64,000 nt of DNA from an uncultured bacterium (GCA_958366945.1 CATXCY010000001.1:118496-182495), one strand, 5' to 3'; counted from the stretch's first letter, positions 11,186-55,254 are shown. Made by a program: numbers and translations. The notes: generated from the letters alone by a model not told the origin.

Positions 11186-11197
11186 GATTTATACAAT

Positions 11198-12025
11198 ATG
11201 AGTAATAATTCGATAGTGCCCAGAAACTTGAACGAACCGGAAGACAAATTTGAGATGCCGGTTGACGCCGTCCTTTTGGCAGGAGGTCTTATCAAAGATC
11301 TGCCCGCTTCGGAGCCTAAAGTAGCAGGCAAAGGCCACATTATGATAGGCGATAAGCCTATGAGTGCCTACGCTTTAGCCGCCCTACGCCAATCAAAAAA
11401 AATTCGCCGCATAATCTTAGTTAGTCCCATGAAAAGAGAAGATTTAGGCCCCGAATGGGAAGGCGTTGACGAAGTAGTTCCGGCGGGTTCCAGCTTAACA
11501 GAATCTCTATTTTCCGGTCTCAAAACTTTGCCTTTAAGCAATGATCCAGTACTTTTAGTAGCCGGCGATTTACCTTTTCTAAGCGTGGAAGCCGTAGACG
11601 ATTTTCTAGACAGATGCGCTGCAGAACGGCACAACGTTTTATGGTACGGTTTTTTAGATAAAGCTGTCTCTCAAGCCAAATACCCTGAGGTACGCCATAC
11701 TTGGGTAAAAATGGTCGAAGGCACTTTCTGTGGCGGCGGCTTAACTTGCTTAAGAGGTAACATTGCCGAAGCTATCCGAGAAGCTATGGATACAGTCACC
11801 GCCGGACGCAAGAATCCCTTTAAACTGGCCGGAATTTTAGGTTTGAAAACGCTTTTTTATTTACTTATAGGCAGGCTGACCATTCCTATGGCTGAAAAAG
11901 CCGCCGCCAGACTATTAAAGCTCCCCTGTTGCGGTATAGTCAGCCCTTATGCCGAAACAGCTTACAATATCGACGATGCCGAGTCTTTGGAACAAGCTCG
12001 CCGTCGCCTGACTACTTCCCGTTAG
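11198..12025 (+). CDS. MobA-like NTP-transferase domain protein (putative nucleotidyltransferase).
   Basis: N-terminal AVLLAGGLIKDL...GKGHIMIGDKPM and LVAGDLPFLS resemble the MobA/IspD-type nucleotidyltransferase fold. The exact substrate is unknown. Confidence 0.5.
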   Translation: MSNNSIVPRNLNEPEDKFEMPVDAVLLAGGLIKDLPASEPKVAGKGHIMIGDKPMSAYALAALRQSKKIRRIILVSPMKREDLGPEWEGVDEVVPAGSSLTESLFSGLKTLPLSNDPVLLVAGDLPFLSVEAVDDFLDRCAAERHNVLWYGFLDKAVSQAKYPEVRHTWVKMVEGTFCGGGLTCLRGNIAEAIREAMDTVTAGRKNPFKLAGILGLKTLFYLLIGRLTIPMAEKAAARLLKLPCCGIVSPYAETAYNIDDAESLEQARRRLTTSR

Positions 12026-21616: not shown

Positions 21617-22918
21617 ATGGAAATTCGTCCAACTATGAGCGCTCCTACTTCGCAGATTTACACCAGTGCGAAGTCCGCTCCTACCCAGGCCCCCGTTGAG
21701 AAACAGCCTGAGGAAACCTTCGTTGCTTCCTCCAACAACGGCCCTGTCAACTTAATCATCACCAACAGCGACAAAGCTAAGTTGGAAGAGATGCGCGCTT
21801 CTATTCTCGCTCAGAATCCCGAGAACCAAGTAACCGCCGAGCTTCCTTTGGTAAACGGCTTTGCTGTAACCGTCAACCCTTCCGCCGACGGTACCCTTCT
21901 TCCCAACTTGGCTAAAGCCAACGAAGAAGGCAACAGAATCTTCATGGATGCCCAGATTGGCATTCCTAAGAACGAGATGGACGATCTCGAAAACACCTTC
22001 CGTCCCTTGATGGACACTGCCAACGTCACTTTAGGCGTAGACAAGCTCCACGATCAAGGCATCACCGGTAAGGGCGTAACCGTATGCGTTATCGACACCG
22101 GTATTGCTCAGCACCCCGACTTCGAAGGTCGTATCGTTGGCTTTAAAGATATGGTCAACGGCCGTACCGAGCCCTACGACGATCAGGGTCACGGCACTCA
22201 CTGCACCGGTATCTGCGCCGGTAGCGGCAAGACCTCCAAAGGCAAATACACCGGCGTGGCTCCTGAAGCCAGCATTGTCGGCGTAAAAGTTTTGGACCGC
22301 AACGGTTCCGGTTCTCTCTCCAACGTTATCAAAGGCGTACAATGGGCTGTTGAGAACAAAGATAAATTAAACATCGACGTCATCAGCATGTCTTTGGGCG
22401 GCTACGTTTCCCAGAGCTACAAAGATGACCCCGTGGTACAAGCTGTTGAAGCCGCTCACGCTGCTGGTATCAGCTGCGTAGTAGCCGCCGGTAACGAAGG
22501 CCCCGGCTCCGGCACCATCGGTTCTCCCGGTAACGCTCCTCACGCCATCACCGTAGGCGCTTTGGACGACAAGGGCACCGTAGATCGCTCCGACGACGAT
22601 TTGGCTTACTTCTCCAGCCGTGGTCCCAGCCGCATCGACAAGCTCGAGAAACCCGACATCTTGGCTCCTGGCGTAGACATCACCGCCGCTTCCCACAAGG
22701 GTAAAGGTTATGTAACTATGTCTGGTACCTCCATGGCCACTCCTTTCGCCGCTGGCGTAGACGTGCTCATGCACCAGGTCAAACCCAACATCAGCCCCGA
22801 TCAGGTCAAAGAGATCATGATGAAGAATGCTGATGCTCTCGAAGGCGTAAGCAAATTCGAGCAGGGTAAAGGCGTTATCGATCCTCAAGAGAACATCGAG
22901 TTCTTGCTTGGTAAGTAA
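21617..22918 (+). CDS. Subtilisin-like serine protease (peptidase S8).
   Basis: Catalytic triad motifs VCVIDTGI (Asp), HGTHCTGI (His) and GTSMATP (Ser). Confidence 0.85.
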   Translation: MEIRPTMSAPTSQIYTSAKSAPTQAPVEKQPEETFVASSNNGPVNLIITNSDKAKLEEMRASILAQNPENQVTAELPLVNGFAVTVNPSADGTLLPNLAKANEEGNRIFMDAQIGIPKNEMDDLENTFRPLMDTANVTLGVDKLHDQGITGKGVTVCVIDTGIAQHPDFEGRIVGFKDMVNGRTEPYDDQGHGTHCTGICAGSGKTSKGKYTGVAPEASIVGVKVLDRNGSGSLSNVIKGVQWAVENKDKLNIDVISMSLGGYVSQSYKDDPVVQAVEAAHAAGISCVVAAGNEGPGSGTIGSPGNAPHAITVGALDDKGTVDRSDDDLAYFSSRGPSRIDKLEKPDILAPGVDITAASHKGKGYVTMSGTSMATPFAAGVDVLMHQVKPNISPDQVKEIMMKNADALEGVSKFEQGKGVIDPQENIEFLLGK

Positions 22919-40414: not shown

Positions 40415-40491
40415 TGGTGGACGAGAACGGACTCGAACCGCCGACCCCCTGCTTGTAAGGCAGGTGCTCTAACCAACTGAGCTACTCGTCC
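40415..40491 (-). tRNA. tRNA-Val (anticodon TAC).
   Basis: Cloverleaf reads GGACGAGTAGCTCAGTTGG..CTTACAA..GGTTCGAGTCC with encoded CCA. Confidence 0.85.
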
Positions 40492-40584
40492 AAAAAAAAG
40501 AGAAGCTTTTCAGTAAACGCTGTCTAACTAAATCAGCCTCTCATTCTATTTAACCGCCTTCCCTATGAAGGACAGTGTTTTAAG

Positions 40585-40661
40585 TGGTAGCCCGGACGGG
40601 AATCGAACCCGTGATCTCCGGCTTGAAAGGCCAGCGTCCTAAACCGCTAGACCACCGGGCC
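40585..40661 (-). tRNA. tRNA-Glu (anticodon TTC).
   Basis: GGCCCGGTGGTCTAGCGGTTAGGAC, anticodon loop CTTTCAA, GGTTCGATTCC, CCA. Confidence 0.85.
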
Positions 40662-40693
40662 ATGTACACTTTTCTTGAACACCAAGGGGGTCT

Positions 40694-40769
40694 TGGTGGG
40701 CCCACCTGGATTCGAACCAGGGACCAATTAGTTATGAGCCAACTGCTCTAACCGCTGAGCTATGGGCCC
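40694..40769 (-). tRNA. tRNA-Met (CAT). Elongator type; a lysidine tRNA-Ile2 cannot be excluded.
   Basis: GGGCCCATAGCTCAGCGGTTAGAGC, anticodon loop CTCATAA, GGTTCGAATCC, CCA. Confidence 0.8.
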
Positions 40770-40965: not shown

Positions 40966-42261
40966 CTAAAAGTTGATGTAAAGCTGAGCGCTTTGCAAAG
41001 CTGCCAAGTGATTTTCCAAGCCAAAATAGTTTTCACAAGCGCGGGAAATTTGCTTAAGCTTATAGCGGCGCTTGGGAGCAACAAATACATAAAAGCGCCA
41101 TAAATTGCGATGCTTATCACGCAAGACATTTACTTCCGGCAATTGCAAAGAAGCTAATGAGCACGGTTCTTCTGGCCCTATTTTAACCAGAACTTCAGCT
41201 TCTTTTAATTGCATATTGGCTGAAGGGCAGTAAATAATTAGCTCTCCGGGATCTAGACCAAGATCGCTAATCAACCTCTCTTCGGCTTCTTTGCGATATT
41301 CAGCTTTATTGTGGAAACGCTCTACCAGCTGGGCTTCCTTTTCATAGCCAATGCGTCTAGTTAAAACGTAAGCACGCTTGTAAATTTTGCGCGAGCTAAA
41401 AGCTTTATAAATGCTAGCTATCAAAGGATCATCGCCAAAGTGCCACTCAATATAGGCTAAAAGACGCTCGTCGCCCAAAGGCAAAATATCTTTAAGTTTC
41501 AGCCCAAGTTCTAAAGCACGTTCTACAATTCTGGAGATCATAGCTCCGGAAGCGGTTTTGGTATGGTGGAAGAAAACGCGTTCAGTTAAAAAGTAACGTA
41601 AGCGCAATAAGTTAATAACTTCAGAAACTAAATCTTCTCTAACTACGCCATTTTTTTGGCAATCTAAATACAAGTGGCTGCCGTCAGTGCGCAAGCTGCG
41701 CATAATGCGCTTATCATATTTCTGAGAAAGACCACAAAAAAAAGCGTCGCGAGCTAAATAATCCAAAAGATCGGCACAAAACATACCGCCAATAAGCTCA
41801 CTTTGCCAAGCTTTTTCAGCCTGCCCGTGAAGAATAGCTTTTACAAGTTCGGCTATAGCCAATTTATGAAGTATTTTGCCTAGCTCAGTGCGCTTATTAA
41901 AAAAAAGCTCAAAACGCTCTGGTGAATCGTGGCGGCTAAAAATGCGCCGTTCATCTTCTACGGTATGACCAAAGGGAATATGACCTACATCATGCAAAAG
42001 AGCAGCCGCACTCACAGCTAACCTTTCGAAATTGCTTATCTTGGTACCAAATTCTTCCAAAATTTTTAGAAGAGTAAGAGCCAAGTGGCAAGTCCCCAGG
42101 CTATGCTCAAAACGAGTGTGAACTGCTCCAGGATAAACTAAAGAAGCCGTACCTAATTGCTTTATGCCTCGAAGCCTTTGCATTTGAACTGTATCTATAA
42201 GTTCAATTAACTCATCAGGCAAAAAAATATCTTCGTGTACAGGATCTCTGAATATTTTCAA
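40966..42261 (-). CDS. HD-domain dNTP triphosphohydrolase-like protein (SAMHD1/dGTPase family).
   Basis: N-terminal DPVHEDIFL...QRLRGIKQLG...YPGAVHTRFEHSLGTCHLA...LLHDVGHIPFGHTVED, the characteristic HD motif. 431 aa. Confidence 0.8.
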   Translation of the reverse strand: MKIFRDPVHEDIFLPDELIELIDTVQMQRLRGIKQLGTASLVYPGAVHTRFEHSLGTCHLALTLLKILEEFGTKISNFERLAVSAAALLHDVGHIPFGHTVEDERRIFSRHDSPERFELFFNKRTELGKILHKLAIAELVKAILHGQAEKAWQSELIGGMFCADLLDYLARDAFFCGLSQKYDKRIMRSLRTDGSHLYLDCQKNGVVREDLVSEVINLLRLRYFLTERVFFHHTKTASGAMISRIVERALELGLKLKDILPLGDERLLAYIEWHFGDDPLIASIYKAFSSRKIYKRAYVLTRRIGYEKEAQLVERFHNKAEYRKEAEERLISDLGLDPGELIIYCPSANMQLKEAEVLVKIGPEEPCSLASLQLPEVNVLRDKHRNLWRFYVFVAPKRRYKLKQISRACENYFGLENHLAALQSAQLYINF

Positions 42262-42264
42262 AGT

Positions 42265-42744
42265 TTATTCTTCGTCTTCTCCGTCATCTTCTTCGCTAAG
42301 CTCACCAGAGTAGATAGACACTTCACGGATCATACAATCTAACTGAGCCGCGCTAAGCTGACTAACTGGACATGCTGCTTGTAAGATAACATATTCGCAA
42401 TCGTCGCCCTTACTAATCATTAAGCGACTATAAATGAGGTTCTGGTCGCAGAAGCGCAATAATTCAGCCGGATCCAAATCTTCGCTGTATTCACCAATTT
42501 CAGCTTCTACTACTACAGCTTCGGCTTCATGGTACATGGCATCGTCGACATCGACCATGAAAACATCTACTTCAGGCTGATCATCCTGATAAACGCGGAA
42601 AACATTTTCTTCCGGAATCCATTCGGCTTCCATGTGCTCATCATGATATTTGGCGTAAACAATGAGCTCATCCATTAAATTGTTAAGATATTCCGGGGCC
42701 TCTAAAGACTCTTCTTCAGGATTTACAGCTTCAGGATCGGTCAT
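42265..42744 (-). CDS. Small highly acidic protein (YbjN-like?), translationally coupled upstream of the HD-domain gene.
   Basis: 159 aa with pI clearly acidic (many D/E; C-terminus EEDDGEDEE). Only a 3-nt gap to the HD-gene start, so likely an operon. Confidence 0.45.
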   Translation of the reverse strand: MTDPEAVNPEEESLEAPEYLNNLMDELIVYAKYHDEHMEAEWIPEENVFRVYQDDQPEVDVFMVDVDDAMYHEAEAVVVEAEIGEYSEDLDPAELLRFCDQNLIYSRLMISKGDDCEYVILQAACPVSQLSAAQLDCMIREVSIYSGELSEEDDGEDEE

Positions 42745-42861
42745 AAGAAAAAACTCCTAAATACAGGCGGAAGTTTGCCGGAAAAGGCTCCGCCTTTGAC
42801 AAAATTGTGCCGTTCCTAGTTCTATTAGGGTTACTCTTTCACCTTTTATAGCGCCCCAATA

Positions 42862-42906
42862 GAAAAAGGCTGCTGCCGAGAAAGAAGATAACTCGGCAAC
42901 AGCCTT
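42862..42906 (-). terminator. Terminator hairpin for nuclease paralog 1, on the minus strand.
   Basis: AAGGCTGCTGCCGAG...CTCGGCAACAGCCTT with a flanking A/T run. Confidence 0.4.
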
Positions 42907-42962
42907 CAATAAGCTATAAAGTTTCGATCTTCCGCAGCAGCAACAGACTGAAACCTTGTTGC

Positions 42963-44042
42963 TTACTTGTCGAGACCCTGAGGGGCAAAGTCATTTTCAG
43001 CAGTCAAACGCACTGGCTCTTTGGTAATATCGCCGATATTGCCAAAGTGCAAATCAGTCATTTGTTCAAGCTGCTTCTGAGGAACCTGATAAACGCTGAA
43101 TTTATCGGGATCGAAGCCAGAAATACCTAAAGTATGATCGCTCTCAATGATGTCTTTCTGAGAAAGTACAAAGGAAGCGCTCTTTAAGTTGCCAGTTTTC
43201 TCGTCAGCCCAAACTACAGTTTTGAAGAACTGCATAGGAATCTGAACGGGCTTCTTCATGGCTCCGTTGTTGGTGAACTTAGGATCGTCATCAGAGAAGA
43301 TGGGGCCGGTGATTACGGTCATCTTCTGATTACCGCTGGTAGCACTGTCGAGAACATGATTTTCCAAGTTTAACCATTCTTTTTGGTTTAAACCGGCATG
43401 CTGTAAGGTAGCGTTGCAATAGCTAAAAGTATCATTATTAGCTTGTTTGGCCTCTTTACCCCAGCAAGGATCTAAGCGGCGCACCATGTGGCCCTTATCG
43501 ATATCATTGTTCCTGTAAGCTTCGTTGCCCAACTGGCATTCGCGGGGAATACGACCATCGAGTTCCCATTTGCCGCTGCGGGGCAAGTCTTGGTGAGTAG
43601 CACCATCGATATTGGAAATGGTGTAGAAGCACTGTTTGCGCTCACCATTCATAACGATGGAGAAGTGAGTATAAGGTAAAACATACTCGCCAGGCTTGTC
43701 GGTACGCATAGCCACTTTGTCTTTAATGGAACTGCCCAACTCGGGAAGAGGAAGCTCTTTACCTAAGAAAGAGCTGTCATAACCGGCACGATTGCGATAC
43801 ATGTTGACGCCGTCGCCTTGGACAGTGATGGGGCCCTCAGCCTTTTGGGCTTGAGCACTGGCGTGGCTCTTGAAAAGTCTGCCGGCGCTGGCAAAGGCTT
43901 GCTCGTTAGCGAAGTCTCTGTTGTCGTCATGGACGAACACATCCTTGCTGCTTCCCTGGAAGCCTTCGGGACGGCTGACAGAATTTTCAATCATCTGAGG
44001 ATTGTTAAATAACGAGCTGCTAGAGATACTGTTAATTCCCAT
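42963..44042 (-). CDS. DNA/RNA non-specific endonuclease (EndoG/NucA family), paralog 1 of 6.
   Basis: Start refined to ATG 44042 (MGINSISSSS) with GGAG upstream; tracker ORF extends to 44159. Catalytic DKGHMVRRLDPCWG (DRGH-type His-Me finger) and NATLQHAGLNQKEWLNLENHV (Mg-binding Asn/Glu). Confidence 0.8.
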   Translation of the reverse strand: MGINSISSSSLFNNPQMIENSVSRPEGFQGSSKDVFVHDDNRDFANEQAFASAGRLFKSHASAQAQKAEGPITVQGDGVNMYRNRAGYDSSFLGKELPLPELGSSIKDKVAMRTDKPGEYVLPYTHFSIVMNGERKQCFYTISNIDGATHQDLPRSGKWELDGRIPRECQLGNEAYRNNDIDKGHMVRRLDPCWGKEAKQANNDTFSYCNATLQHAGLNQKEWLNLENHVLDSATSGNQKMTVITGPIFSDDDPKFTNNGAMKKPVQIPMQFFKTVVWADEKTGNLKSASFVLSQKDIIESDHTLGISGFDPDKFSVYQVPQKQLEQMTDLHFGNIGDITKEPVRLTAENDFAPQGLDK

Positions 44043-44496
44043 TTTTATCTGCTCCATTACCGAAGCCTGCTTCGCCTTAAAGCAGGCTAAATTCCTGATT
44101 TTAAATGCCTTACACAGACAAAATATCTTCAGGCGTGACATGCTCCTTAAGCTTAACAAAATTTGCTAAACTTAAGGCTTCTGAGATGTTGATGAACCGC
44201 ACCTCCAAAAAATTTGAAAGTACAAGCTCTATCTTAGTAGGTGATGTCCCACCTACATGCTGCTCAGCTTCAAAGTTCCCTTGTATGCAATGATACAAAG
44301 AAAAATATTGGAGCTAAGTAACGTTTTATATAATCTTTTCCTCCCCTTTCTCCTAAATATTAGCAGTCAATTAGGCAAAAATGTTCCTTTTTTATGAACT
44401 TTTAGTTAACGTATCAAAAAATGAGCCGTCTGCTGCAAAATATTTTTACAGCGCGGCCCATCTATATTTACCTAATATGTAGCTAAGTTAAATACT

Positions 44497-45603
44497 TTAG
44501 CTGAGTTTAGGAGCGTAATTGTTGTCAGCGCTTAAGCACATAGCTGTTTCGGTAATATCGCCGATATTGCCAAAGTGCAAATCAGTAAGACGCTCGACTT
44601 CTTTCTGCGGCACTTGATAAATTTTAAATTCACCGGGATCGAAGCCTTTGCCCTTATTCTTCTTAGCTTTAAAGAGAGAGCTATCATTATTGATAATATC
44701 TTTTTGAGAGAGAATAAAGGAAGCGCTCTTTAAGGTGCCTTTTTCATTCCAAACTACAGTTTTGAAAAACTGTAAAGGAATTTGGGTAGCTTCTTTCATG
44801 GCGCCTTTATTGTCGAACTTCGGATCGTCATCGGCAAAAATAGGGCCAGTAATTACAGTCATTTTTTGACCGGAACCGCGAGCTGAATTTAAAACGTGAT
44901 CTTCTAAACGCAACCACTCTTTTTTATTGAGACCAGCGTGTTGTAAAGCGGAGTTGCAATAGCTGAAAGTATCCTCACCAGCTAACTTGGCATTTTGGCC
45001 CCAACAAGGATCTAAGCGACGCACCATGTGACCGCGATCAATGCTATTTCCGCCGTAAGCTTCGTCACCAAGCTGATATTTGCGAGGAATGCGGCCATCT
45101 AAAGTCCAGGTACCTTCACGTTTTACGCTGCGAGAAGCTCTACCATCAATATTACAAATAGCGTAGAAGCATTGCTTGCGCTCTTTATTCATTACTACTG
45201 AATAGTTGGTGTAAGTAAGCTCACACTCACCAGGCTTATCGGTGCGCATAGCCACTTTATTCTGAATGGAAGAACCTAAGCCGGGCAAAGGAAGTTCTAC
45301 GCCCAAGAAAGATTTGTCGTAGCCGTTGCGCCCCTCAAACATGCTGACAGGCTCGCCTTGCACGGAGATCAAAGAAGAAGCGGAATTAGTTTGTTGAGCT
45401 TCGCGACCACAACTTTGGAAAAGACGACCAGCCTTGGCGAATTCTTGCTCTTTAGTAAATTGAGCGCTCTCGTCACGAACAAAAACATCTTTGCCCGTAC
45501 CCTGAAAGCCTTCAGGACGGCTGACACTATTCTCAGAGACCTGAGTGTTAATATATAAAGAATTGCTGGAAATGCTGCCTATTCCCACTGAAAATAGCTC
45601 CAT
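44497..45603 (-). CDS. EndoG/NucA-family nuclease, paralog 2.
   Basis: MELFSVGIGSISSNS...; DRGHMVRRLDPCWG; NSALQHAGLNKKEWLRLEDHVL. GGGGGGAG Shine-Dalgarno. Confidence 0.8.
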   Translation of the reverse strand: MELFSVGIGSISSNSLYINTQVSENSVSRPEGFQGTGKDVFVRDESAQFTKEQEFAKAGRLFQSCGREAQQTNSASSLISVQGEPVSMFEGRNGYDKSFLGVELPLPGLGSSIQNKVAMRTDKPGECELTYTNYSVVMNKERKQCFYAICNIDGRASRSVKREGTWTLDGRIPRKYQLGDEAYGGNSIDRGHMVRRLDPCWGQNAKLAGEDTFSYCNSALQHAGLNKKEWLRLEDHVLNSARGSGQKMTVITGPIFADDDPKFDNKGAMKEATQIPLQFFKTVVWNEKGTLKSASFILSQKDIINNDSSLFKAKKNKGKGFDPGEFKIYQVPQKEVERLTDLHFGNIGDITETAMCLSADNNYAPKLS

Positions 45604-45643
45604 TGTTCTCCCCCCACTGTAATATATGCAAAGTTCTCTATTT

Positions 45644-45683
45644 CAAAAAAAGCTGCTCGACTTATTAAAATCGAGCAGCTTTC
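45644..45683 (-). terminator. Rho-independent terminator downstream of paralog 3.
   Basis: AAAGCTGCTCGA...TCGAGCAGCTTT flanked by an A-run (U-run on the minus strand). Confidence 0.55.
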
Positions 45684-45703
45684 TACTCAGCTAAAACAAA
45701 ATG

Positions 45704-46822
45704 CTAGCTTAACTTAGGAGCGTAATCGTTCTCGGCAGTTAAGCGCATAGGCTTCTCGGTGATGTCACCGATATTGCCAAAGTGCAAATCGGTCATTTGC
45801 TCGAGTTGCTTCTGAGGCACCTGGTAAACGCTGAAGCGGCCGGGATCTACACCCTTGCTCTTAAAGAGAGAGTGATCTTTATTGATAATGTCTTCCTGAG
45901 AGAGCACGAAAGAGGCGCTCTTAAGCTTGCCACCATCGTTCCAGACCACGGTCTTGAAGAACTTCATGGGGATCTGGGTAGCTTCTTTCATTCTGCCCTT
46001 GTTGTCAAACTTAGGATCGTTTTCAGAGAAGATCGGGCCAGTGATAACGGTAAGTTTCTGCTTTTCTTTGCCAGTAGTGGCGCTGTCCAAAACGTGGTTT
46101 TCTAAGCAGAGCCATTCTTTTTGGTTCAAAGCACCATGCTGCAAGGTGGCATTGCAATAGCTGAAAGTATCACGGCTGGCGCGCAGAGGATCGTCGCCCC
46201 AGCAAGGATCTAAGCGGCGCACCATGTGGCCCTTATCGATATTGTTGCCGCCATAAGCTTCGTTGCCCAACTGGTATTCACGAGGAATACGACCGTCGAT
46301 AGTCCAGTTGCCATCGCGCTTTACTTCCTGGTGGCTGTTACCGTCGATATTGCAAATAGCATAGAAGCACTGTTTGCGCTCTTTGTTCATTACTACGGAG
46401 TAGTTGGTGTAAGTGAGCTCGCTCTTGCCAGGCTCATCGGTACGCATAGCGACCTTGTCTTTAATAGAATCGCCCAAACCAGGTAAAGGAAGATCTACGC
46501 CCAAGAAAGACTTGTCGTAGCCGTTGCGACCTTCAAACATGTTGACGCTCTCGATATCGACACCGGAAGCGGCAGACATAATATTGGTTTGCTGAGTCTC
46601 CTCAGGATTGGCTTGAGGCTGAGCCTCGCGCTGGCAGCTTTGGAAAAGGCGACCGGCCTTAGCAAAATCCTGCTCTTTGACAAACTGAGCGTTATCATCG
46701 TGTACAAATACGTCTTTGCCAGTACCCTGGAAACCTTCAGGACGACGAATAGAGCTCTCAGAGATTTGAGTGTTAGTATATAAAGAACTACCAGAAATAC
46801 TTCCGATACCCATTGTGAACAA
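45704..46822 (-). CDS. EndoG/NucA-family nuclease, paralog 3.
   Basis: TTG start at 46822, or ATG at 46813 (MGIGSISGSS). DKGHMVRRLDPCWG; NATLQHGALNQKEWLCLENHVL. Confidence 0.8.
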   Translation of the reverse strand: MFTMGIGSISGSSLYTNTQISESSIRRPEGFQGTGKDVFVHDDNAQFVKEQDFAKAGRLFQSCQREAQPQANPEETQQTNIMSAASGVDIESVNMFEGRNGYDKSFLGVDLPLPGLGDSIKDKVAMRTDEPGKSELTYTNYSVVMNKERKQCFYAICNIDGNSHQEVKRDGNWTIDGRIPREYQLGNEAYGGNNIDKGHMVRRLDPCWGDDPLRASRDTFSYCNATLQHGALNQKEWLCLENHVLDSATTGKEKQKLTVITGPIFSENDPKFDNKGRMKEATQIPMKFFKTVVWNDGGKLKSASFVLSQEDIINKDHSLFKSKGVDPGRFSVYQVPQKQLEQMTDLHFGNIGDITEKPMRLTAENDYAPKLS

Positions 46823-46972
46823 CCCCTAGTTTTCTCCCCACCCCAGACCTTGTTTACCAATAAATACTACAGAATTTAAAATACTATTTGTGCACAAAAT
46901 TGTAACAAGCTTGTCAAATTTTCATTTAAAGTCGCATTTTTTAGTTTGTAGCTTATGATTAAGCTCCAGAAC

Positions 46973-47020
46973 AAAAAAAAGCGCCTTGCTCTTTATTTTT
47001 TCAAGAGCAAAACGCTTCTC
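46973..47020 (-). terminator. Rho-independent terminator downstream of paralog 4.
   Basis: GCGCCTTGCTCTT...AAGAGCAAAACGC with an A8 run. Confidence 0.55.
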
Positions 47021-47038
47021 ATCTAAATGCTCAGTTCC

Positions 47039-48226
47039 TTACTTATCTAAACCTACGGGAGCATAGTTATTTTCTGCAGTCAAACGCACGGCTTTTTTGC
47101 AAGTATCGCCAATGTTGCCGAAATGCAAATCGGTAAGGCGCTCAACTTCTTTTTGAGGCACTTGATAGACATCGAAACGGCCAGGCTCAAAACCGCCTTT
47201 AAGCTTAATGGTGTCATCTTCTTTGATAATATCTTCCTGGGAAAGAATGAAAGAAGCGCTCTTTAAATTGCCAGTTTTTTCGTCGGCCCAAACGACTGTT
47301 TTGAAGAATTTCATAGGAATCTGGGCAGGCTCTTTCATCTTGCCATTATTGTCGAACCAAGGGTCGTTCTCGGAGAAAATAGGGCCAGTAATTACACTCA
47401 TCTTTTGACCGCTGGCAGAATTGAGCACATGGTCTTCTAAAGCGAGCCATTCATCTTGGTTTAAACCGGCATGTTGCAAAGAAGCGTTGCAATAGCTGAA
47501 AGTGTCACGGCTAGCTAATTCGGCATTGCTACCCCAGCAAGGATCTAAGCGACGTACCATGTGGCCCTTGTCGATATTGTTGCGTTTGTAAGCTTCATCG
47601 CCCAATTGGTATTCACGAGGAATGCGGCCATCTAAAGTCCAGTTGCCGGAACGCTTAACAGCGTGCTGGCTATTACCGTCGATATTGCAAATAGCGTAGA
47701 AGCACTGCTTGCGCTCTTTATTCATTACTACGGAGTAGTTGGTGTAAGTAAGCTCGCTCTCGCCGGGCTTGTCAGTACGCATAGCCACTTTATCTTGAAT
47801 GGAAGAGCCAAGTTGAGGCAAAGGAAGCTCGGTACCTAAGAAGTTTTTGTCGTAGCCATTGCGACCATTAAACATACTGACTTTGTCGCCTTGAATTGTA
47901 ACTACACCAGAAGCGGAATCAGCTTGCTGAGATTCGCGATTCCCACTTTGGAAGAGACGACCAGCTTTAGCAAAGTCCTGCTCTTTAACAAACTGAGCAT
48001 TATCATCATGAACAAAGACATCTTTGCCAGTACCCTGGAATCCTTCAGGACGGCTGATAGAGCTTTCAGGAACCTGATTATTTATATACAAAGAGCTGCC
48101 AGAAATACTTCCGATACCCACAGTAAACGACTCCGATTTTTTCCCCGCCCCAAAACTTTCTAACTCAGTAGATACTACAGAATTTAAACGACTGGTTAGG
48201 CACAAAAATGTAACAAAATTGACCAA
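47039..48226 (-). CDS. EndoG/NucA-family nuclease, paralog 4.
   Basis: Likely true start is GTG at 48121 (VGIGSISGSS) with GGAG 11 nt upstream; the tracker ORF begins at 48226. DKGHMVRRLDPCWG; NASLQHAGLNQDEWLALEDHVL. Confidence 0.8.
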   Translation of the reverse strand: MVNFVTFLCLTSRLNSVVSTELESFGAGKKSESFTVGIGSISGSSLYINNQVPESSISRPEGFQGTGKDVFVHDDNAQFVKEQDFAKAGRLFQSGNRESQQADSASGVVTIQGDKVSMFNGRNGYDKNFLGTELPLPQLGSSIQDKVAMRTDKPGESELTYTNYSVVMNKERKQCFYAICNIDGNSQHAVKRSGNWTLDGRIPREYQLGDEAYKRNNIDKGHMVRRLDPCWGSNAELASRDTFSYCNASLQHAGLNQDEWLALEDHVLNSASGQKMSVITGPIFSENDPWFDNNGKMKEPAQIPMKFFKTVVWADEKTGNLKSASFILSQEDIIKEDDTIKLKGGFEPGRFDVYQVPQKEVERLTDLHFGNIGDTCKKAVRLTAENNYAPVGLDK

Positions 48227-48235
48227 AAGAAAAAT
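48174..48235 (-). promoter_or_regulatory. Conserved promoter-like element upstream of the nuclease paralogs.
   Basis: Plus-strand motif TACTACAGAATTTAAA...TTAGGCACAAAAATGTAACAA...TTGACCAAAAG. Homologous copies occur at 46865-46925 and 49587-49650. Sits between each terminator and the next start codon. Confidence 0.4.
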
Positions 48236-48276
48236 AAAAGCGCTCTGGCTTCAATATGAAACCAAAGCGCTTATTT
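48231..48276 (-). terminator. Rho-independent terminator downstream of paralog 5.
   Basis: AGCGCTCTGG...CCAAAGCGCT with an A-run. Confidence 0.55.
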
Positions 48277-48318
48277 AAGCGTGCCGACTACAATGCGGCT
48301 TCCGCTTAGTGATATTTA

Positions 48319-49434
48319 CTAGGCTAACTTAGGAGCGTAGTCATTCTCAGCGGTCAAGCGCATAGGCTGCTCGGTGATGTCGCCAATATTGCCAAAGTGC
48401 AAATCGGTGAGGCGCTCAACTTCTTTCTGAGGCACCTGGTAAACTTCGAAGCGATCGGGATCGAAACCGCCCTTAGCACCTAAGGAACCGTCACCATTGA
48501 TAATGTCTTCCTGAGAAAGGATGAAGGAAGCGCTCTTGAGCTCTTTGCCTTCGGTCCAAACCACAGTCTTGAAGAACTTCATAGGAATCTGGGCCGGTTC
48601 TTTCATCTTGCCATGGTTGTTGAAGGAAGGATCGTCTTTGGAGAAGATAGGGCCGGTAATGACGGTCATCTTCTGGCCTTTAGCAGAATTGAGAACGTGG
48701 TCTTCGAGCTGGAGCCACTCTTTCTGGTTTAAACCAGCGTGCTGTAAGGAAGAGTTGCAATAGCTGAAAGTGTCATGGCTAGCCAAATCGGCGTTTTTGC
48801 CCCAGCAAGGATCTAAGCGGCGAACCATGTGGCCTCTGTCTATATTGTTGTCGGCATAGGCTTCGTTGCCGAGCTGGTATTCGCGAGGAATACGACCATC
48901 GAGGCTCCAGCTGCCGGAACGCTTAACATCGCGATGAGTAGTGCCATCAATGTTGCAAATGGCATAGAAGCACTGCTTGCGCTCTTTGTTCATTACTACG
49001 GAGTAGTTGGTGTAAGTAAGTTCGCACTCGCCGGGCTTGTCGGTGCGCATAGCCACTTTGTCTTTAATGGAATCGCCAAGGCCGGGCAAAGGAAGCTCTA
49101 CACCCAAGAAGGCTTTGTCGTAACCATTGCGGCCTTCGAACATGCTTACGCCGTCGGGCTTAACTTCGCGGGGACCTTTAGGACCGTTAGGGCCTTGAGC
49201 GCCATCATTCCTGCGGCGATTCTTTCTCTTGGCGATTTCGAAACTGTTGTCGTTTACGCTCTGGAAGAGGCGACCAGCTTTAGCAAACTGCTGCTCTTTG
49301 GTGAGCTGAGCGTCGTCGTCATGAACGAATACGTCTTTGCCAGTGCCCTGGAAACCTTCAGGACGTTTGATAGAGCTCTCAGAAACCTGAGTGTTAGTAT
49401 ATAAAGAATTACCAGAAATGCTTCCGATACCCAT
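48319..49434 (-). CDS. EndoG/NucA-family nuclease, paralog 5.
   Basis: MGIGSISGNS...; DRGHMVRRLDPCWG; NSSLQHAGLNQKEWLQLEDHVL. Unique basic linker (RKNRRRNDGAQGPNGPKGP). Confidence 0.8.
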   Translation of the reverse strand: MGIGSISGNSLYTNTQVSESSIKRPEGFQGTGKDVFVHDDDAQLTKEQQFAKAGRLFQSVNDNSFEIAKRKNRRRNDGAQGPNGPKGPREVKPDGVSMFEGRNGYDKAFLGVELPLPGLGDSIKDKVAMRTDKPGECELTYTNYSVVMNKERKQCFYAICNIDGTTHRDVKRSGSWSLDGRIPREYQLGNEAYADNNIDRGHMVRRLDPCWGKNADLASHDTFSYCNSSLQHAGLNQKEWLQLEDHVLNSAKGQKMTVITGPIFSKDDPSFNNHGKMKEPAQIPMKFFKTVVWTEGKELKSASFILSQEDIINGDGSLGAKGGFDPDRFEVYQVPQKEVERLTDLHFGNIGDITEQPMRLTAENDYAPKLA

Positions 49435-49649
49435 GTTTTACAATTCCTATCCCTTTAATTAGGCTTTGCAGAAAACTCTGGTAGTCACAAAAACTGTCAA
49501 AGCTTTCAACGAATCGAGACAAGCCAGCTACTATCTAAAACGCAGACAACAGATACGCTTGCTCAAAAAACATTAACTGAACAGATACTACAGAATTTAA
49601 AAGTCTAATTAGGCAAAAAAATGTTACAACTTGGCCAAAAAACTTTTTA

Positions 49650-49696
49650 AAAATAAAATGCGCTCCAAAGCCAAAGCTTTTGAAGCGCATTCAATT
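49650..49696 (-). terminator. Rho-independent terminator downstream of paralog 6.
   Basis: AATGCGCT...GAAGCGCATT with an A-run. Confidence 0.55.
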
Positions 49697-49716
49697 AGCT
49701 ATTTTATATATAAGAT

Positions 49717-50772
49717 TTAGTTTAACTTGGGAGCGTAGTCGTTCTCAGCGGTCAGGCGCATAGGCTGCTCGGTGATGTCGCCGATGTTGCCAAAGTGCAA
49801 GTCGGTGAGACGCTCAACTTCTTTCTGAGGCACCTGGTAAACTTCAAAGCGATCGGGATCGAAGCCACCTTTAATGCCCAAAGAGCTGTCGTTGTTGATG
49901 ATATCTTCCTGAGAGAGGATGAAGGAAGCGCTCTTGAGCTCTTTGCCATCATTCCAAACTACAGTTTTGAAGAATTTCATGGGGATCTGAGTAGGCTCAT
50001 CCATCATACCGTTGTTATCAAACTTTGGATCGTCTTTGGAGAAGATGGGGCCGGTAATAACGGTCATTTTTTGACCTTTAGCAGAACCGAGCACGTGATC
50101 TTCAAGTTTGAGCCATTCTCTCTGGTTCAAGCCACCATGTTGCAAAGCGGCGTTGCAATAAGTGAAGGTGTCACGGCTAGCCAATTCGGGATCCTTACCC
50201 CAGCAAGGATCTAAGCGGCGAACCATGTGGCCCTTGTCAATATTGTTATCTTTGTAGGCTTCGTTGCCCAACTGGTACTCGCGAGGAATACGACCATCGA
50301 TAGACCAGCTGCCGGAACGTCTGACATTGCGATGGCTGGTGCCGTCAATATTGCAAATAGCGTAGAAGCACTGCTTGCGCTCTTTGTTCATAACGACAGA
50401 GAAGTTAGTATAGGTGAGTTCGCTCTCACCAGGTTTGTCGGTGCGCATGGCAACTTTGTCTTTAATGGAAGAGCCGAGCTCAGGTAAAGGAAGTTCGGTG
50501 CCCAAGAAGTTTTTGTCGTAGCCATTGCGGCCTTCATACATACTGACGCCTTCGATTTCAATTTCGGAAGCGGCATTGACGTGTCCGGCCTGAGTGCTCT
50601 GGAAGAGACGACCAGCTTTAGCGAATTGCTGTTCTTTGGTGAACTGAGAGCTTTCGTCGCGAACGAAGACATCTTTGCTAGTGCCTTGGAAACCTTCGGG
50701 ACGCTTAACGTCGCTCTGCTGGATATTATTAAAGGCAGTAAAAGAACTGCTGGATATGCTACCTAAACCCAT
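49717..50772 (-). CDS. EndoG/NucA-family nuclease, paralog 6.
   Basis: MGLGSISSSS...; DKGHMVRRLDPCWG; NAALQHGGLNQREWLKLEDHVL. Confidence 0.8.
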   Translation of the reverse strand: MGLGSISSSSFTAFNNIQQSDVKRPEGFQGTSKDVFVRDESSQFTKEQQFAKAGRLFQSTQAGHVNAASEIEIEGVSMYEGRNGYDKNFLGTELPLPELGSSIKDKVAMRTDKPGESELTYTNFSVVMNKERKQCFYAICNIDGTSHRNVRRSGSWSIDGRIPREYQLGNEAYKDNNIDKGHMVRRLDPCWGKDPELASRDTFTYCNAALQHGGLNQREWLKLEDHVLGSAKGQKMTVITGPIFSKDDPKFDNNGMMDEPTQIPMKFFKTVVWNDGKELKSASFILSQEDIINNDSSLGIKGGFDPDRFEVYQVPQKEVERLTDLHFGNIGDITEQPMRLTAENDYAPKLN

Positions 50773-50907
50773 TTAGTTAAACCAACCTAGTTTTAGACAT
50801 ATTTCCCCCCTTGCAGCTATACTACACAATAAAAGATGTTTATTATACAGAAACTATTTACAAAAATATTAACATGAGCCCAGAATCCTTTAAAATTAAC
50901 TGTTCGT

Positions 50908-53559
50908 TCAATCGTTATGCCAGCTAGGTTTGTCCATTGCTGGAGACGTCTGAGCCGCTTTAACAGCGGTAGTTTCTTCCAAATTGTTTTTGCTTTCCGC
51001 AACCGAACTATCCATATTGCCTACGTTGGCAGCTCCACTTAGCCTATCGCTAAAAGGAGATTGTGAAGCCGCACTGTCAACTTTTTTGAAAGCATTTTGA
51101 TCAGTTAAGTCGGGAATTTCTATATCTTTTAACTCTTGAGTGTCTTTAGAAGAAACACCTTGCGAAGTTGTAGAAGAAGCGGTAGAACCAAGCTCAGGCT
51201 CGGTGCCATTAGTGCTAATGAACTTATCGGCTCCCTTATTACCAAGACGCTTTGAATAGTAGTAGGAAGTTACCAAAAGAGCCACGCCCAAAACGAAGAA
51301 AAGCAGCAACTTATAGACGATAGGCAAATTTATAATATCGTAAGTAATTACTCTAAGCAAAGTAACACAAACGATAAAAATACCACAGTTGGTGATATAA
51401 CGATTCTTAAAGCGAATACCACCCCAAAGGATTGCCGCTGCGTAGAGCATCCACAAAACAGAAGTAATAGAACTTAAATGGCAAACTGCGGCAATATTAT
51501 GTCCTTCTATATGAACTAAAGACCAGCCACTAAGCACAGCTCCAACCAGATAAATTTCAGATCCGTAAAGTACAAAAGCGGCAGCTAAAGCCAAAATAGT
51601 TAAAGCGTGAGCTAAAAAGCCGATATTAACTATAGGAATAAATTCGGCATAAGTACCTGTAATGCAACTAAGAATATTGATAGTCAAGCCAAATAAAGAC
51701 AGAGCCAAAGCCAAATTGAAACCAATGGCAAAAGCATTGCTCTTAGCCTTTTTGGCTTGAAGCATAGCTTGCAAAGCATAAATAGAACAAACGGCCACTA
51801 AGCTAAAGCAGCTAAAAGCCCACCACTGTTGACCATTTAAACTCAAAACGCGATCTAAAATATCGGCTAATTCTCGACCAAAATAAATATAAGCTAAGGT
51901 TATACCAGCCCAAAGGTTGAAATCTCTGTATTTTTCATCACCATTGTAGTGACGGAACATTAAATAGCCAAACAGCCAAGCAGCAATAGAAACTCCGAAA
52001 ATAATTATGGCCAGCTTATGAAGTTCTCGATCAGGACTTAAGAAAAAGTCAAATTTGCCATTAAAGTCGGCCACTAGCATAATGAAAAAGGCCAATACAT
52101 TATGCAAACCGCTCCAGAAGAAGAGGCGTCGTTGCACTTCCGGCTTGACAACTTTATTAAAAGCAATCCAAAGAATAACTAAACCAGCTATAGAGAGGAA
52201 AATAACTCTGGACAATGGCTCTTGGAAGTTGTACGCAGAAAGACCGACCACAAATAAGCCAGCATTGACAAAAGCTCTAGCTAAAGTGTTCATATTTTCT
52301 GCACGCAATTTGGCTAAGCCAAATAAAGCCACCGCAGCCATCATAAAAGCAGCAAAGGCTTGACCTTCACTGTAAATACAATTGGCTCCCAAAGCCATTA
52401 TTAAATGGTTAATCCAAACGGAAGGCTGCTTAGGATTATTTTCGTCTTGGCGGCGGAAGTAATCGTATATCAAGACGATAAGCCAGATGGCTCCCAAAGC
52501 ATAAGGGCTAAAAATTCGGTCAGCCTTTTCGAAAATGCCAGTTCGGGTAGCAATAAAAAGCCAGGTTATAGCTAAGTTGATACTAAAAAGTGAATTCCAC
52601 TTCTGGCAACGCACAGTACCTATTAAACAAAAAAGAGCCAGAATTACTAAATAGACATCAAAAACATAAGTACTGTCGATAGAAGTTTGAATAAAAATTA
52701 AGTTGGCATAACCAGCCAAAGCTCCCAGACAAATAATGGATTTGCGTTGAGCCCAATAAGCCAATACATAAGTGCCCAACAAAATAAGTGAAGCCAGAGC
52801 CAAGCTTACGTAATTATCCCAAAGATCAAAGTAAACGCTGCCAGCATAAGTTACCATGATAGCCGAAGCTAATCCCAACCCCAAAATGGTTTCGGAAAAG
52901 CCGCGCATATTGTCTTTAGGCAAAAGATAAAAACCTAAGCCCACAAGCACCGAGCTCAAAGCATAGACCGCGCCAACCTTCATAGCTGCAGTCAAAGCCA
53001 AAAATGGGGATAACCACTTTATGAAGAGGATGACAAAGACGATAATAGCCAGAGCGCCTAATTTATTGAAAAGGCTGCCCAAGAAGAATTGCTCTAAGTT
53101 GCTTTCAGTTTTGGGCTGAGAGGCAACCGTTTTTTGCGCATATAGCCTAGCTTCGTGCGTAGGCGCAGCCGTCGGCGCTGAATTTGTAACAACGTTAGGC
53201 TCAGCAAGTGATATTTTTTCTTTAGCTAACGACAATACTTTTCCAGTAGCCTCTTCAATAGAATCAGCTGCCGTTGGTGCACTAACTGTCCCGTCTAGTT
53301 TATTGTTATCAGCATAAGTAGAAGAAATTGACGATTCGTTTTCTTGTCGACACGCCTTTTGGGTTGAGTCCGGAAGACGTCCGGAAGTGCCGCTAAGGGA
53401 AATAGTCAAATTTTCCAGACCGACTTCAAGCCTCTCTACGCGTTTTTTTAAGCTTTGGCAAGAAGCCATAGCTATAATAGAAAAAATAAATGGCAGGAAA
53501 AATATTCCTAAAGCCGCGAGCACCAACACAATAAATTCCAATTTTGCACCCTTCCCCAA
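50908..53559 (-). CDS. Large polytopic membrane protein (DUF2339-like).
   Basis: 883 aa. N-terminal TM, a short coiled coil (KKRVERLEVGLENL), a Ser/Thr/Ala-rich linker, then ~20 TM helices. Confidence 0.5.
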   Translation of the reverse strand: MGKGAKLEFIVLVLAALGIFFLPFIFSIIAMASCQSLKKRVERLEVGLENLTISLSGTSGRLPDSTQKACRQENESSISSTYADNNKLDGTVSAPTAADSIEEATGKVLSLAKEKISLAEPNVVTNSAPTAAPTHEARLYAQKTVASQPKTESNLEQFFLGSLFNKLGALAIIVFVILFIKWLSPFLALTAAMKVGAVYALSSVLVGLGFYLLPKDNMRGFSETILGLGLASAIMVTYAGSVYFDLWDNYVSLALASLILLGTYVLAYWAQRKSIICLGALAGYANLIFIQTSIDSTYVFDVYLVILALFCLIGTVRCQKWNSLFSINLAITWLFIATRTGIFEKADRIFSPYALGAIWLIVLIYDYFRRQDENNPKQPSVWINHLIMALGANCIYSEGQAFAAFMMAAVALFGLAKLRAENMNTLARAFVNAGLFVVGLSAYNFQEPLSRVIFLSIAGLVILWIAFNKVVKPEVQRRLFFWSGLHNVLAFFIMLVADFNGKFDFFLSPDRELHKLAIIIFGVSIAAWLFGYLMFRHYNGDEKYRDFNLWAGITLAYIYFGRELADILDRVLSLNGQQWWAFSCFSLVAVCSIYALQAMLQAKKAKSNAFAIGFNLALALSLFGLTINILSCITGTYAEFIPIVNIGFLAHALTILALAAAFVLYGSEIYLVGAVLSGWSLVHIEGHNIAAVCHLSSITSVLWMLYAAAILWGGIRFKNRYITNCGIFIVCVTLLRVITYDIINLPIVYKLLLFFVLGVALLVTSYYYSKRLGNKGADKFISTNGTEPELGSTASSTTSQGVSSKDTQELKDIEIPDLTDQNAFKKVDSAASQSPFSDRLSGAANVGNMDSSVAESKNNLEETTAVKAAQTSPAMDKPSWHND

Positions 53560-53761: not shown

Positions 53762-55012
53762 TTAGGCGTTAATTCCGTGGCACTTTTTGAACTTTTTGCC
53801 ACTGCCACAAGGACAAGGATCGTTGCGACCTACTTTAGCCTGAGCATAAGGATTGACTAAGCTCAAAGCTTTACGGAACTCTTCGTTGTTAGGCTCGAAG
53901 CCACAAGCACGATAGAAAGCGGCGGCAGCTTCTTGCTGCATGCCAGCAGTCAAATAAACCCAACCGGCGGAAAGGTAAGGATAACCGTAACCGCGATCGG
54001 ACTCTACGCCTTTAGCAACTTCTTCTTTAGCTTCGTCAATTTTGCCACCCCAAGCCAGAACAGCAGCCAAATTCAAGTGAGCTAAAGATTTCTTCTGGCC
54101 ATTTTCTACGATCAAGTATTTGCTGAAGCCTTTATCGCGATACTTATCGTTGGCCTGAAGCAAGAACTCAACAGCTCTGGCCTGAGGATAGGCTTCCAAA
54201 AGTTCGGCAGCGCGACGCAAGTACTTTTCAGCTTCTTCCAAGCTGTCTGTTAAAGCATAAGCTACACCGATATTCAAGCAAACTAAAGCCAAATCATCAT
54301 CATTGATGTGCTTGGCTTCAATTTCTTCCATGGATTGCTTCAAATACTTCATGCCGTCTTCAACTTGGCTGTTAAGCATGAGCATAAAGCCGTAGTTGTT
54401 AAGTACCAAATAATGATGGCACTTTTCTTCTTCGATGCCAGCTTTGTAAACTTCCAAAGCAGCGAGCAAACCTTTGCTACCATAAGCCATAGTAGCGCGG
54501 TGCATAATAGCCGGAGCCATTTCTTCGCTTAAACCGAGCTCACGGAAGAATTTGCAACTATCATCATATTCGGCCATAGCGGCACGGGATTGGTTGGCGT
54601 CTACATAAAGGTTGCCCATGTTGCGGTGGCCGCGTCCCTGACCAGCCTTGTCGCCAAGTTCAGTCCAAATGGATAAAGCTCTGGAATAATGGAAGCGAGC
54701 TTCGTCCAAACGGTTGCGCTGATGATAAGCGGAGCCCAAATATTCATCGGCTTGAGCCATAGCTTCTTGATCATTTACCTTTTCGGCTTCAGCGCGACTG
54801 CGGCGGAACTGAATAATAGCATCATCCATTTTGCCTAAGCGGGAGAAAGCAACTCCGCTAAGGTGGTAAAGGCGAACTAATTCTTCGGGCTGAGAAATTT
54901 CTTCTTTAGCCAAGCGAGACAGTTCTTCTGAAGCTTCAGCGTTTTTCTGAGCATTTAAAAGCTCTTCGACGTTGTCGAGAGCGGCACTGAGATTTACGGC
55001 GGTATCTGACAT
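53762..55012 (-). CDS. TPR-repeat protein with a C-terminal SEC-C zinc-binding motif.
   Basis: Start refined to ATG 55012 (MSDTAV) with AGGAG 6 nt upstream; tracker ORF extends to 55078. C-terminus [17 protein letters not shown] is a SEC-C motif. Confidence 0.65.
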
Positions 55013-55254
55013 TGAGACTCCTATTGTAAGTTGCGGACTTTTTCTGCGATATTTATAAGCCATGCCCGCATTTTTCAAACTTCGAAGCCCGATTTTTCCC
55101 CTCTATTTTCTTTTATCCTGCTTGAATACTACTACTGAGAGTATGGCACCTAAGCAATGCTCTTTACTGCCACAAAAAGTGAATTTATATCGAATAATTT
55201 GCTAAGATGCTGGCCCTAAAAAAAATTTGCCACCAAGCATAAAAAGGGACTATA

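Follow-up and report, generated by a model that had tools for sequence, protein, structure and literature searches.

The nucleases of Serratia marcescens (Serratia nuclease) and Anabaena (NucA) are single-copy enzymes that carry a Sec signal peptide. Here we analyse a 64,000-nucleotide stretch of DNA from an uncultured bacterium (GCA_958366945.1 CATXCY010000001.1:118496-182495; hereafter the window), in which six intact genes of the same family stand in tandem on the minus strand at 42963-50772, all of them under strong purifying selection and all of them devoid of a recognisable Sec or Tat signal. Polymorphic toxin systems also combine a nuclease domain with tandem paralogs; in those of the EsaD/EsaG and SUKH type, the immunity genes are arrayed and recombining, and a known trafficking domain forms part of the toxin (PMC9484751, PMC3113570). 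Literature searches turned up no account of bacterial tandem Endonuclease_NS arrays, nor of the biology of the gut Xenobia/UBP9 Eremiobacterota, which are uncultured.

Six intact nuclease genes in tandem

The six open reading frames (ORFs) sit at exactly the coordinates at which an earlier model-made reading, based on the DNA alone (hereafter, the sequence-only reading), had placed six consecutive minus-strand nuclease genes. Their names, n6 to n1, follow the direction of transcription, n6 being the first (aa, amino acids; pLDDT, the AlphaFold confidence score):

49717..50772, minus strand: n6, NucA/EndoG-type nuclease, 351 aa, ATG start; PF01223 E 2.4e-36; AlphaFold2 (AF2) model with pLDDT 79.5 and a predicted EndoG/CPS-6/Serratia nuclease fold
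48319..49434, minus strand: n5, nuclease, 371 aa, ATG start; PF01223 E 5.6e-37; its orthogroup takes in the related loci L006 and L007 (below) at 100% bootstrap
47039..48121, minus strand: n4, nuclease, 360 aa, GTG start
45704..46813, minus strand: n3, nuclease, 369 aa, ATG start
44497..45588, minus strand: n2, nuclease, 363 aa, GTG start (alternative: ATG at 45603); the sole basic paralog
42963..44042, minus strand: n1, nuclease, 359 aa, ATG start; in the tree, the copy closest to the single-copy outgroup genes

The lengths of 351-398 aa given earlier stand only in part. Orthologs in ten related loci all begin with M/V-G-I-G-S-I-S, using ATG or GTG, and the additional 5′ parts of a 395-aa ORF for n4 (to 48226, entering the promoter-like element described below) and of a 398-aa ORF for n1 (to 44159) are unconserved; the proteins are therefore 351-371 aa long, and the two longer figures reflect upstream extensions into the terminator/promoter region that are broken by stops in relatives. 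n1 shares 65-70% identity with each of the five other copies. On the plus strand, ORFs of 107-191 aa also occur within the nuclease genes (45782-46105, 48829-49404 and 49795-50214); they look like antisense shadow ORFs, not genes.

The proposed EndoG/NucA membership was borne out by a hidden Markov model (HMM) search, in which 6/6 copies match PF01223 (Endonuclease_NS) at E 3.8e-43 to 2.4e-36 and 126-148 bits, the curated cut-off being 23 bits. PF01223 is the only Pfam domain matched in the six copies, and no NCBIfam model matches any of them. The block D[KR]GHMVRRLDPCWG ... YCN..LQH..LN..EWL.LE.HV is invariant across the array, the Arg of DRGH being replaced by Lys in four of the six copies, and D179, G181, H182, N207, N216, W220 and E224 (n6 numbering) are unvarying in an alignment of 69 family sequences. 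In a profile search against solved structures, the invariant residues align with the DRGH of EndoG, the Mg-binding Asn of S-N-x-A-P-Q (SNMAPQ) and the glutamate of N..W..LE; 3ism matched at E 7.7e-11, together with Serratia nuclease entries and with 1zm8 and 2o3b, deposited only as ‘Nuclease’, which we take to be Anabaena NucA. The AlphaFold2 model of n6 is confident from about residue 72, with most of the domain above 90, and Foldseek matched it to CPS-6, EndoG, EXOG and Serratia nuclease (E ~1e-10, probability 1.00, identity 16-22%). It is sound to conclude that the six copies are intact NucA/EndoG-type, ββα-Me (DRGH) nucleases, as the earlier claim of an intact catalytic core had it, with the fold modelled for n6.

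The six paralogs belong to one lineage-specific subfamily; by family they would be Mg2+-dependent and sugar-non-specific, with cleavage of DNA and RNA predicted. The family numbers at least 357 clusters at 90% identity, and nearly all listed members are ~290-390 aa long. Wherever the source name of a listed member gives a phylum or candidate lineage, it is Eremiobacterota/UBP9; several others are labelled just ‘bacterium’.

Ancient duplications under purifying selection

A scan of one genome per species yielded ten related loci, L001-L010. The metagenome-assembled genomes that hold them are labelled UBP9, ‘Ca. Riflebacteria’, ‘Ca. Eremiobacteraeota’ or ‘Ca. Bruticola’, with sources that include Hadza (human) metagenomes and goat rumen. 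These labels place the window in the Eremiobacterota order UBP9, class Xenobia: it is core chromosome of a gut-associated, ‘Ca. Bruticola’-like member of this order. Nuclease copies are distributed as follows, five further loci (L012-L016) included:

L001-L005: 6 copies, 1:1 orthologs, 93-100% identical (94-99% for n6)
L006, L007: 4 copies, orthologs of n5, n4, n3 and n2, 81-88% identical
L008, L009: 2 copies, one n6-like and one n1-like
L010: at least 1 copy (n1-like); the contig ends within the locus
L012-L016: 1 copy each, more distant family members

Copy number across the order is thus 1, 2, 4 or 6. The family is indeed expanded, as had been claimed, given the single copy of the distant relatives; the copy-number variation looked for among relatives is found across the order (6/4/2/1) but not among the five closest genomes, which hold six 1:1 orthologs between the same flanks, so that there is no presence/absence variation at the intact site and copy number shifts only at deeper divergence. 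In a neighbour-joining tree, the n5, n4, n3 and n2 orthogroups, L006 and L007 included, are each recovered at 100% bootstrap, which implies that the duplications predate the split of these lineages.

By Nei-Gojobori estimates, paralog pairs have synonymous divergence (dS) of 0.95-2.7, which is saturated, and ratios of nonsynonymous to synonymous divergence (dN/dS) of 0.08-0.21, while ortholog dN/dS is 0.015-0.09 for every copy. All six copies are under strong purifying selection, and the duplications are ancient. Nothing in this analysis points to diversifying selection or recent gene conversion, contrary to the diversifying family envisaged by the sequence-only reading; within the six-copy clade, the array is universally conserved with low diversity, a pattern which that reading had itself named as speaking against its view. 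The n2 orthogroup is basic in 8/8 genomes (the window and L001-L007; isoelectric point, pI, 8.1-8.5), while the other five orthogroups have pI 5.3-7.1, and 54 alignment columns are fixed inside orthogroups and different between them. The stable charge of n2 and these orthogroup-specific columns point to specialisation, not redundancy.

Comparison of the window with L003 (10001-17818) also gave a mosaic of dS along the array (n4 0.018, n2 0.027, n6 0.82, and ~0.2 for n5, n3 and n1), which suggests homologous recombination between strains inside the locus.

Predicted transcription signals of each copy

The intergenic spaces of the array, 100-450 nt long, hold terminators and promoter-like elements. 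Direct reading of this DNA places a GC-rich hairpin followed by a U-run 3′ of 6/6 genes, with folding energies of -21.5 to -29 kcal/mol (z -3.6 to -6.8 vs shuffles), as the sequence-only reading had claimed for every copy:

49640..49696, minus strand: terminator after n6, -21.5 kcal/mol, z -3.6, then UUUUAUUUUU
48225..48272, minus strand: terminator after n5, -24.2 kcal/mol, z -5.1; also found by a consensus scan
46968..47020, minus strand: terminator after n4, -24.6 kcal/mol, z -4.3, then U8
45643..45684, minus strand: terminator after n3, -24.7 kcal/mol, z -4.8; stem kept in L006/L007 via compensatory changes
44413..44463, minus strand: terminator after n2, -23.9 kcal/mol, z -5.3
42860..42907, minus strand: terminator after n1, -29 kcal/mol, z -6.8

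In the n3 stem, the paired changes in the distant L006 and L007 are GCTGCTCGA/TCGAGCAGC vs GCTGTCCAA/TTGGGCAGC.

A recurring promoter-like element had also been proposed. On the coding strand, it reads ...TTGT[AT]ACA..TTTTGYGCC/ACAA...TTTAAATTCTGTAGTAT:

50819..50852, minus strand: diverged element upstream of n6, TTCTGTATAAT ... TTTTATTGTGTAGTAT, also written TTCTGTATAAT...TTGTGTAGTAT; read directly
49574..49641, minus strand: 68-nt promoter-like element upstream of n5, ..TTGTAACA..TTTGCCTAA..TTTAAATTCTGTAGTAT; repeat family D11
48161..48228, minus strand: 68-nt promoter-like element upstream of n4; repeat family and exact 17-mer
46853..46920, minus strand: 68-nt promoter-like element upstream of n3; repeat family and exact 17-mer

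The proposal holds for four genes: the exact 17-mer TTTAAATTCTGTAGTAT and its 68-nt context lie upstream of n5, n4 and n3 only (3 matches vs 0.42 expected by chance) and a diverged form precedes n6, but the sequences upstream of n2 and n1 are unrelated to the element, each conserved among its own orthologs. The element is kept before n5, n4 and n3 in L001-L005, and that of n3 is kept before the n3 ortholog in L006 and L007 although coding dS is 1.57, which argues that selection acts on it. The diverged n6 element has three-mismatch matches in L001-L003 and L005, and an alignment of n6 upstream regions shows the block kept in L004 as well. A conserved TGTAGTAT-type upstream box is thus common to 4/6 genes.

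Since each paralog has its own terminator and four of the six share the upstream box, six monocistronic units are the best reading of the layout, and the compensatory changes in the n3 stem lend support to the separate transcription units predicted earlier. Attempts to fit the conserved element by eye to a sigma-70 or sigma-54 consensus failed. An Rfam search found no known regulatory RNA or riboswitch in the long upstream leaders, returning three tRNAs and chance or antisense matches. The latter include ‘Plastid-ycf2 5UTR’ matches at 40417-40769 on the plus strand, artefacts of tRNA-like structure that score under the gathering threshold and face the three tRNA genes from the other strand.

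A polar leader in place of an export signal

None of the six nucleases has a Sec or Tat signal, and neither they nor the 69 family members contain a hydrophobic segment resembling a signal peptide, which leaves classical secretion unsupported, where the sequence-only reading had proposed secreted or toxin nucleases. Maximal hydropathy over 10 aa within the first 45 aa averages 0.69 for the family vs 2.1-3.2 for signal-peptide proteins of the same window. In place of a Sec signal stands a family-specific leader of ~60-70 aa in three parts: an uncharged stretch of 22 residues (28% Ser, 14% Ile, 11% Asn, 11% Gly and zero Lys/Arg), a conserved segment RPEGFQG..KDVFV.D...EQ.FAKAGRLFQS, and a linker hypervariable in length and sequence. 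The leader is predicted to be disordered, residues 1-70 of n6 having low AlphaFold confidence except for a weak helix at 40-61. The N-termini of more distant family members differ, yet are equally polar and signal-less. The nuclease domain itself has an extra conserved N-terminal part, at residues ~72-115.

A leader profile run against 1.84 billion representative proteins returned this nuclease family and two other matches, P0178 (cold-shock-domain repeats) and P0179 (WW-domain repeats), which we rejected as short-motif coincidences. That the leader is a modular domain shared with other proteins was rejected, given that a local HMM search (~330 kb) likewise found the nuclease family only; it is therefore no widely shared trafficking module.

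A Peptidase_S8 subtilase at 21617-22918 on the plus strand (E 1e-61) also lacks a signal peptide. Its N-terminus is polar and Ser/Thr-rich (MEIRPTMSAPTSQIYTSAKSAP...), which makes it the second typically extracellular hydrolase here without a Sec signal; this is a hint of export by some unrecognised route in the organism, more than of hydrolases that stay in the cytoplasm. One could go further and propose that the leader marks an undescribed Sec-independent export or injection route in UBP9 for hydrolases (the six nucleases, perhaps the subtilase), with the acidic protein described below, of type III chaperone fold, as shared chaperone or inhibitor; we regard this as a long shot. If true, such a route would suit the predatory or host-interacting lifestyle suspected for a marine sister family. 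That an enzyme otherwise typical of the extracellular type lacks a signal peptide in more than 350 clusters poses a concrete, testable question about protein export in the phylum.

Genomic surroundings

The GC content of the array is 0.42-0.46, against 0.40-0.49 for the whole window, whose other genes include EF-G, GAPDH, PGK, TPI, DnaX, RecR, GlnRS, MTAP, alanine racemase (Alr) and an ABC transporter. No integrase, transposase or other mobility gene was found among 33 scanned ORFs outside the array, and the tRNA region shares no 13-mer direct repeat with any other part of the window. About 2.2 kb with two other genes separates the array from the tRNA cluster, itself conserved in relatives. 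The order TPR-SEC-C / DUF2339 / array / acidic 159-aa gene / HD gene is alike in L001-L008 and rearranged in L009, while in the truncated L010 only the n1-like copy, the acidic gene and the HD gene are visible; the tRNA Met-Glu-Val cluster and MTAP come after the HD gene wherever the fetched sequence of a relative extends that far. A tRNA-associated island is rejected in view of the flat GC, the housekeeping flanks, the absence of a tRNA repeat and the shared gene order. Within the array, no immunity genes are interleaved, and the n2-n1 intergenic ORFs of at least 20 aa overlap on both strands.

Downstream of n1 lie two genes:

42265..42744, minus strand: acidic 159-aa protein, pI 4.05; neighbouring gene that precedes the HD gene in a pair, at most a candidate part of the system
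40966..42261, minus strand: HD + HD_assoc_2 phosphohydrolase (dGTPase-like), neighbouring gene; weak dGTPase match in PADLOC

The acidic protein, encoded just downstream of the n1 terminator, has 46 acidic and 6 basic residues (29% Asp+Glu) and no significant Pfam match, hence no NuiA-like gene is detected there. Its modelled fold (α-β-β-β-α-β-β-α) is the one found in the class I chaperones of type III secretion, and the YbjN/DUF2170 family fits it equally well. It is 97% conserved in L006 and L007, vs 81-88% for the nucleases and 46-48% for DUF2339. In the window, its gene ends 3 nt from the HD start codon, and it is always directly upstream of HD + HD_assoc_2; L011 has the acidic gene and the HD gene with no nuclease in 14 kb, and the single nucleases of L012-L016 have no acidic gene within 10 kb. 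A dedicated partnership with the nucleases is weakened by these neighbourhoods and by the -29 kcal/mol terminator at the n1 boundary. The constant partner of the acidic protein is the HD gene, and its role as chaperone for the leaders survives as a minority hypothesis. In L008, from goat rumen, an acidic 159-aa ORF lies antisense (8661-9140), just upstream; in that locus, a 2.3 kb spacer (10394-12726) parts the two nuclease genes and encodes two low-complexity proteins of 240 and 219 aa, both with signal peptides.

Enzymes of nucleotide metabolism flank the array, namely the HD + HD_assoc_2 protein and two PNP/MTAP-family phosphorylases (PNP_UDP_1). In L014 and L015, a single nuclease stands beside a divergent Crp-family regulator and pyrB-pyrI-pyrC, with an HD + HD_assoc_2 gene ~4 kb off. 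Loose as it is, this recurring neighbourhood of nucleotide-metabolism genes fits nucleic-acid scavenging. In these two loci (L014 9321-11062, from a marine metagenome, and L015 9336-11062), the nuclease is divergently paired with a cNMP_binding + HTH_Crp_2 gene, just downstream of pyrB-pyrI-pyrC.

On the upstream side, a DUF2339 multi-pass membrane protein (50908-53559, minus strand) is syntenic and much faster-evolving than its neighbours, being only 46-48% identical in L006 and L007, and has long low-complexity Ala/Pro/Ser-rich tails. A 438-aa TPR protein with a C-terminal SEC-C zinc motif (53762-55078, minus strand) adjoins the locus in L001-L009 and also occurs near the acidic/HD pair of L011; its PADLOC matches are due to the SEC-C motif alone. 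A 935-aa protein (61180-63987, minus strand) has a partial histidyl-tRNA synthetase domain (E 1.5e-10); a duplicated HisRS marker (COG0124) has been reported across order UBP9 (PMC9259500).

Proposed function and alternatives

Overall, we favour Sec-independent release of specialised paralogs for nucleic-acid scavenging, which we consider somewhat probable. The descriptive part of this reading is near certain; its export and scavenging part is tentative, a little short of an even chance. The six nucleases would be active and would leave the cell, by release or delivery, through a Sec-independent route for which the N-terminal leader is the signal; they would break down foreign nucleic acid, be it dietary, from the host or from other microbes. 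The cleavage products may then feed salvage enzymes encoded nearby, i.e., the HD phosphohydrolase and the two PNP/MTAP-type phosphorylases. Several observations weigh against this proposal. Neither the 64 kb window nor the fetched flanks show export machinery, and no self-protection factor was identified there, a factor that a non-specific nuclease active in the cytoplasm could be expected to require. The salvage genes nearby form a loose neighbourhood that may have arisen by chance. On the side of transcription, the putative promoter element does not fit canonical -35/-10 spacing, and a consensus scan shows no excess of promoter-like sites vs shuffles.

The marine sister family ‘Ca. Eudoremicrobiaceae’, of the same order, has been described as motile and Gram-negative, with a high predatory index and an abundance of degradative enzymes and secretion systems (PMC9259500); flagellar genes appear in its gene table, along with one FliI gene and another ATPase annotated FliI or SctN (PMC9259500). 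These traits may serve as a lead for the gut lineage; they are not evidence about it.

The nucleases might instead work inside the cell, degrading foreign or own DNA/RNA, recycling nucleotides or acting in defence, restrained by an inhibitor or by their own leader. An export signal of any known kind is missing, the neighbours are cytoplasmic nucleotide-metabolism enzymes, and an acidic, possibly DNA-mimicking protein adjoins the array; however, beyond the gut clade that protein and the nuclease are unlinked, neither of the two matches a PADLOC defence model, and the signal-less subtilase hints at export. To our knowledge, six separately transcribed non-specific nucleases inside a cell have no precedent, and we consider this role unlikely. 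Injection into bacteria or host cells as contact-dependent effectors, through a type III-like or other needle- or tail-like apparatus, would explain the disordered, uncharged leader, with its Ser-rich first 22 aa and the conserved strand-plus-helix stretch that follows, as secretion signal and chaperone-binding region, and the acidic protein as shared class I-type chaperone, possibly a transient inhibitor. The flagellar genes, FliI and second FliI/SctN-type ATPase of the marine sister family would fit such a scheme, but the acidic gene tracks the HD gene with or without a nuclease nearby, a strong terminator separates it from n1, and no apparatus genes are seen in the window or fetched flanks; injection is accordingly rated as quite improbable.

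The sequence-only reading itself, that of an accessory island beside tRNA genes whose secreted or toxin nucleases form a diversifying arsenal, is the one we give least credence, and find very improbable. In its favour are the expansion of the family relative to single-copy relatives and the tRNA cluster 2.2 kb away. The housekeeping context of flat GC lacks an integrase and a tRNA-derived repeat, the locus is conserved in relatives together with the tRNA cluster, dN/dS is 0.015-0.21 throughout, and the proteins have no signal peptide, no immunity genes and no known delivery domain. Sec-independent release for scavenging remains our preferred account. Whatever the route, the uncultured gut Eremiobacterota offer few strong functional signatures, and a conserved nuclease family of six copies, each predicted to be transcribed on its own, is among them; it suggests that nucleic acid is of importance to this lineage, as a resource or as a weapon.

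Comparison with known systems

The small acidic protein of class I chaperone fold beside disordered, Ser-rich N-termini recalls type III effectors and their chaperones (ExoU-SpcU, HopA1-ShcA); unlike in those pairs, no secretion apparatus is seen, and it is the HD gene, rather than the nuclease, that the chaperone-like gene accompanies. With the polymorphic nuclease toxins (S. aureus EsaD/EsaG, PMC9484751; SUKH immunity, PMC3113570), the array shares the nuclease domain and tandem paralogs. Here, however, it is the nucleases that are arrayed, with no interleaved small genes and under strong purifying selection, and neither Pfam nor the leader profile reveals a known trafficking domain in them (LXG, PAAR, Rhs, MIX, CDI etc.).

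The best structural and profile matches are the mitochondrial EndoG, CPS-6 and EXOG which, unlike the array, are eukaryotic single genes with a mitochondrial presequence; nothing resembling EndoGI, the two-domain inhibitor of Drosophila EndoG, is evidenced at the array, and no counterpart of NuiA, the inhibitor of Anabaena NucA, was detected there, the acidic neighbour having no Pfam match. Serratia nuclease and NucA share with the array copies PF01223, the ββα-Me fold, the DRGH His, the Mg-binding Asn and the Glu. The array differs from them in its six copies, in the absence of a signal peptide, in its leader of 60-70 aa and in the extra residues ~72-115. The enzymes themselves are ordinary, and existing knowledge is not overturned.

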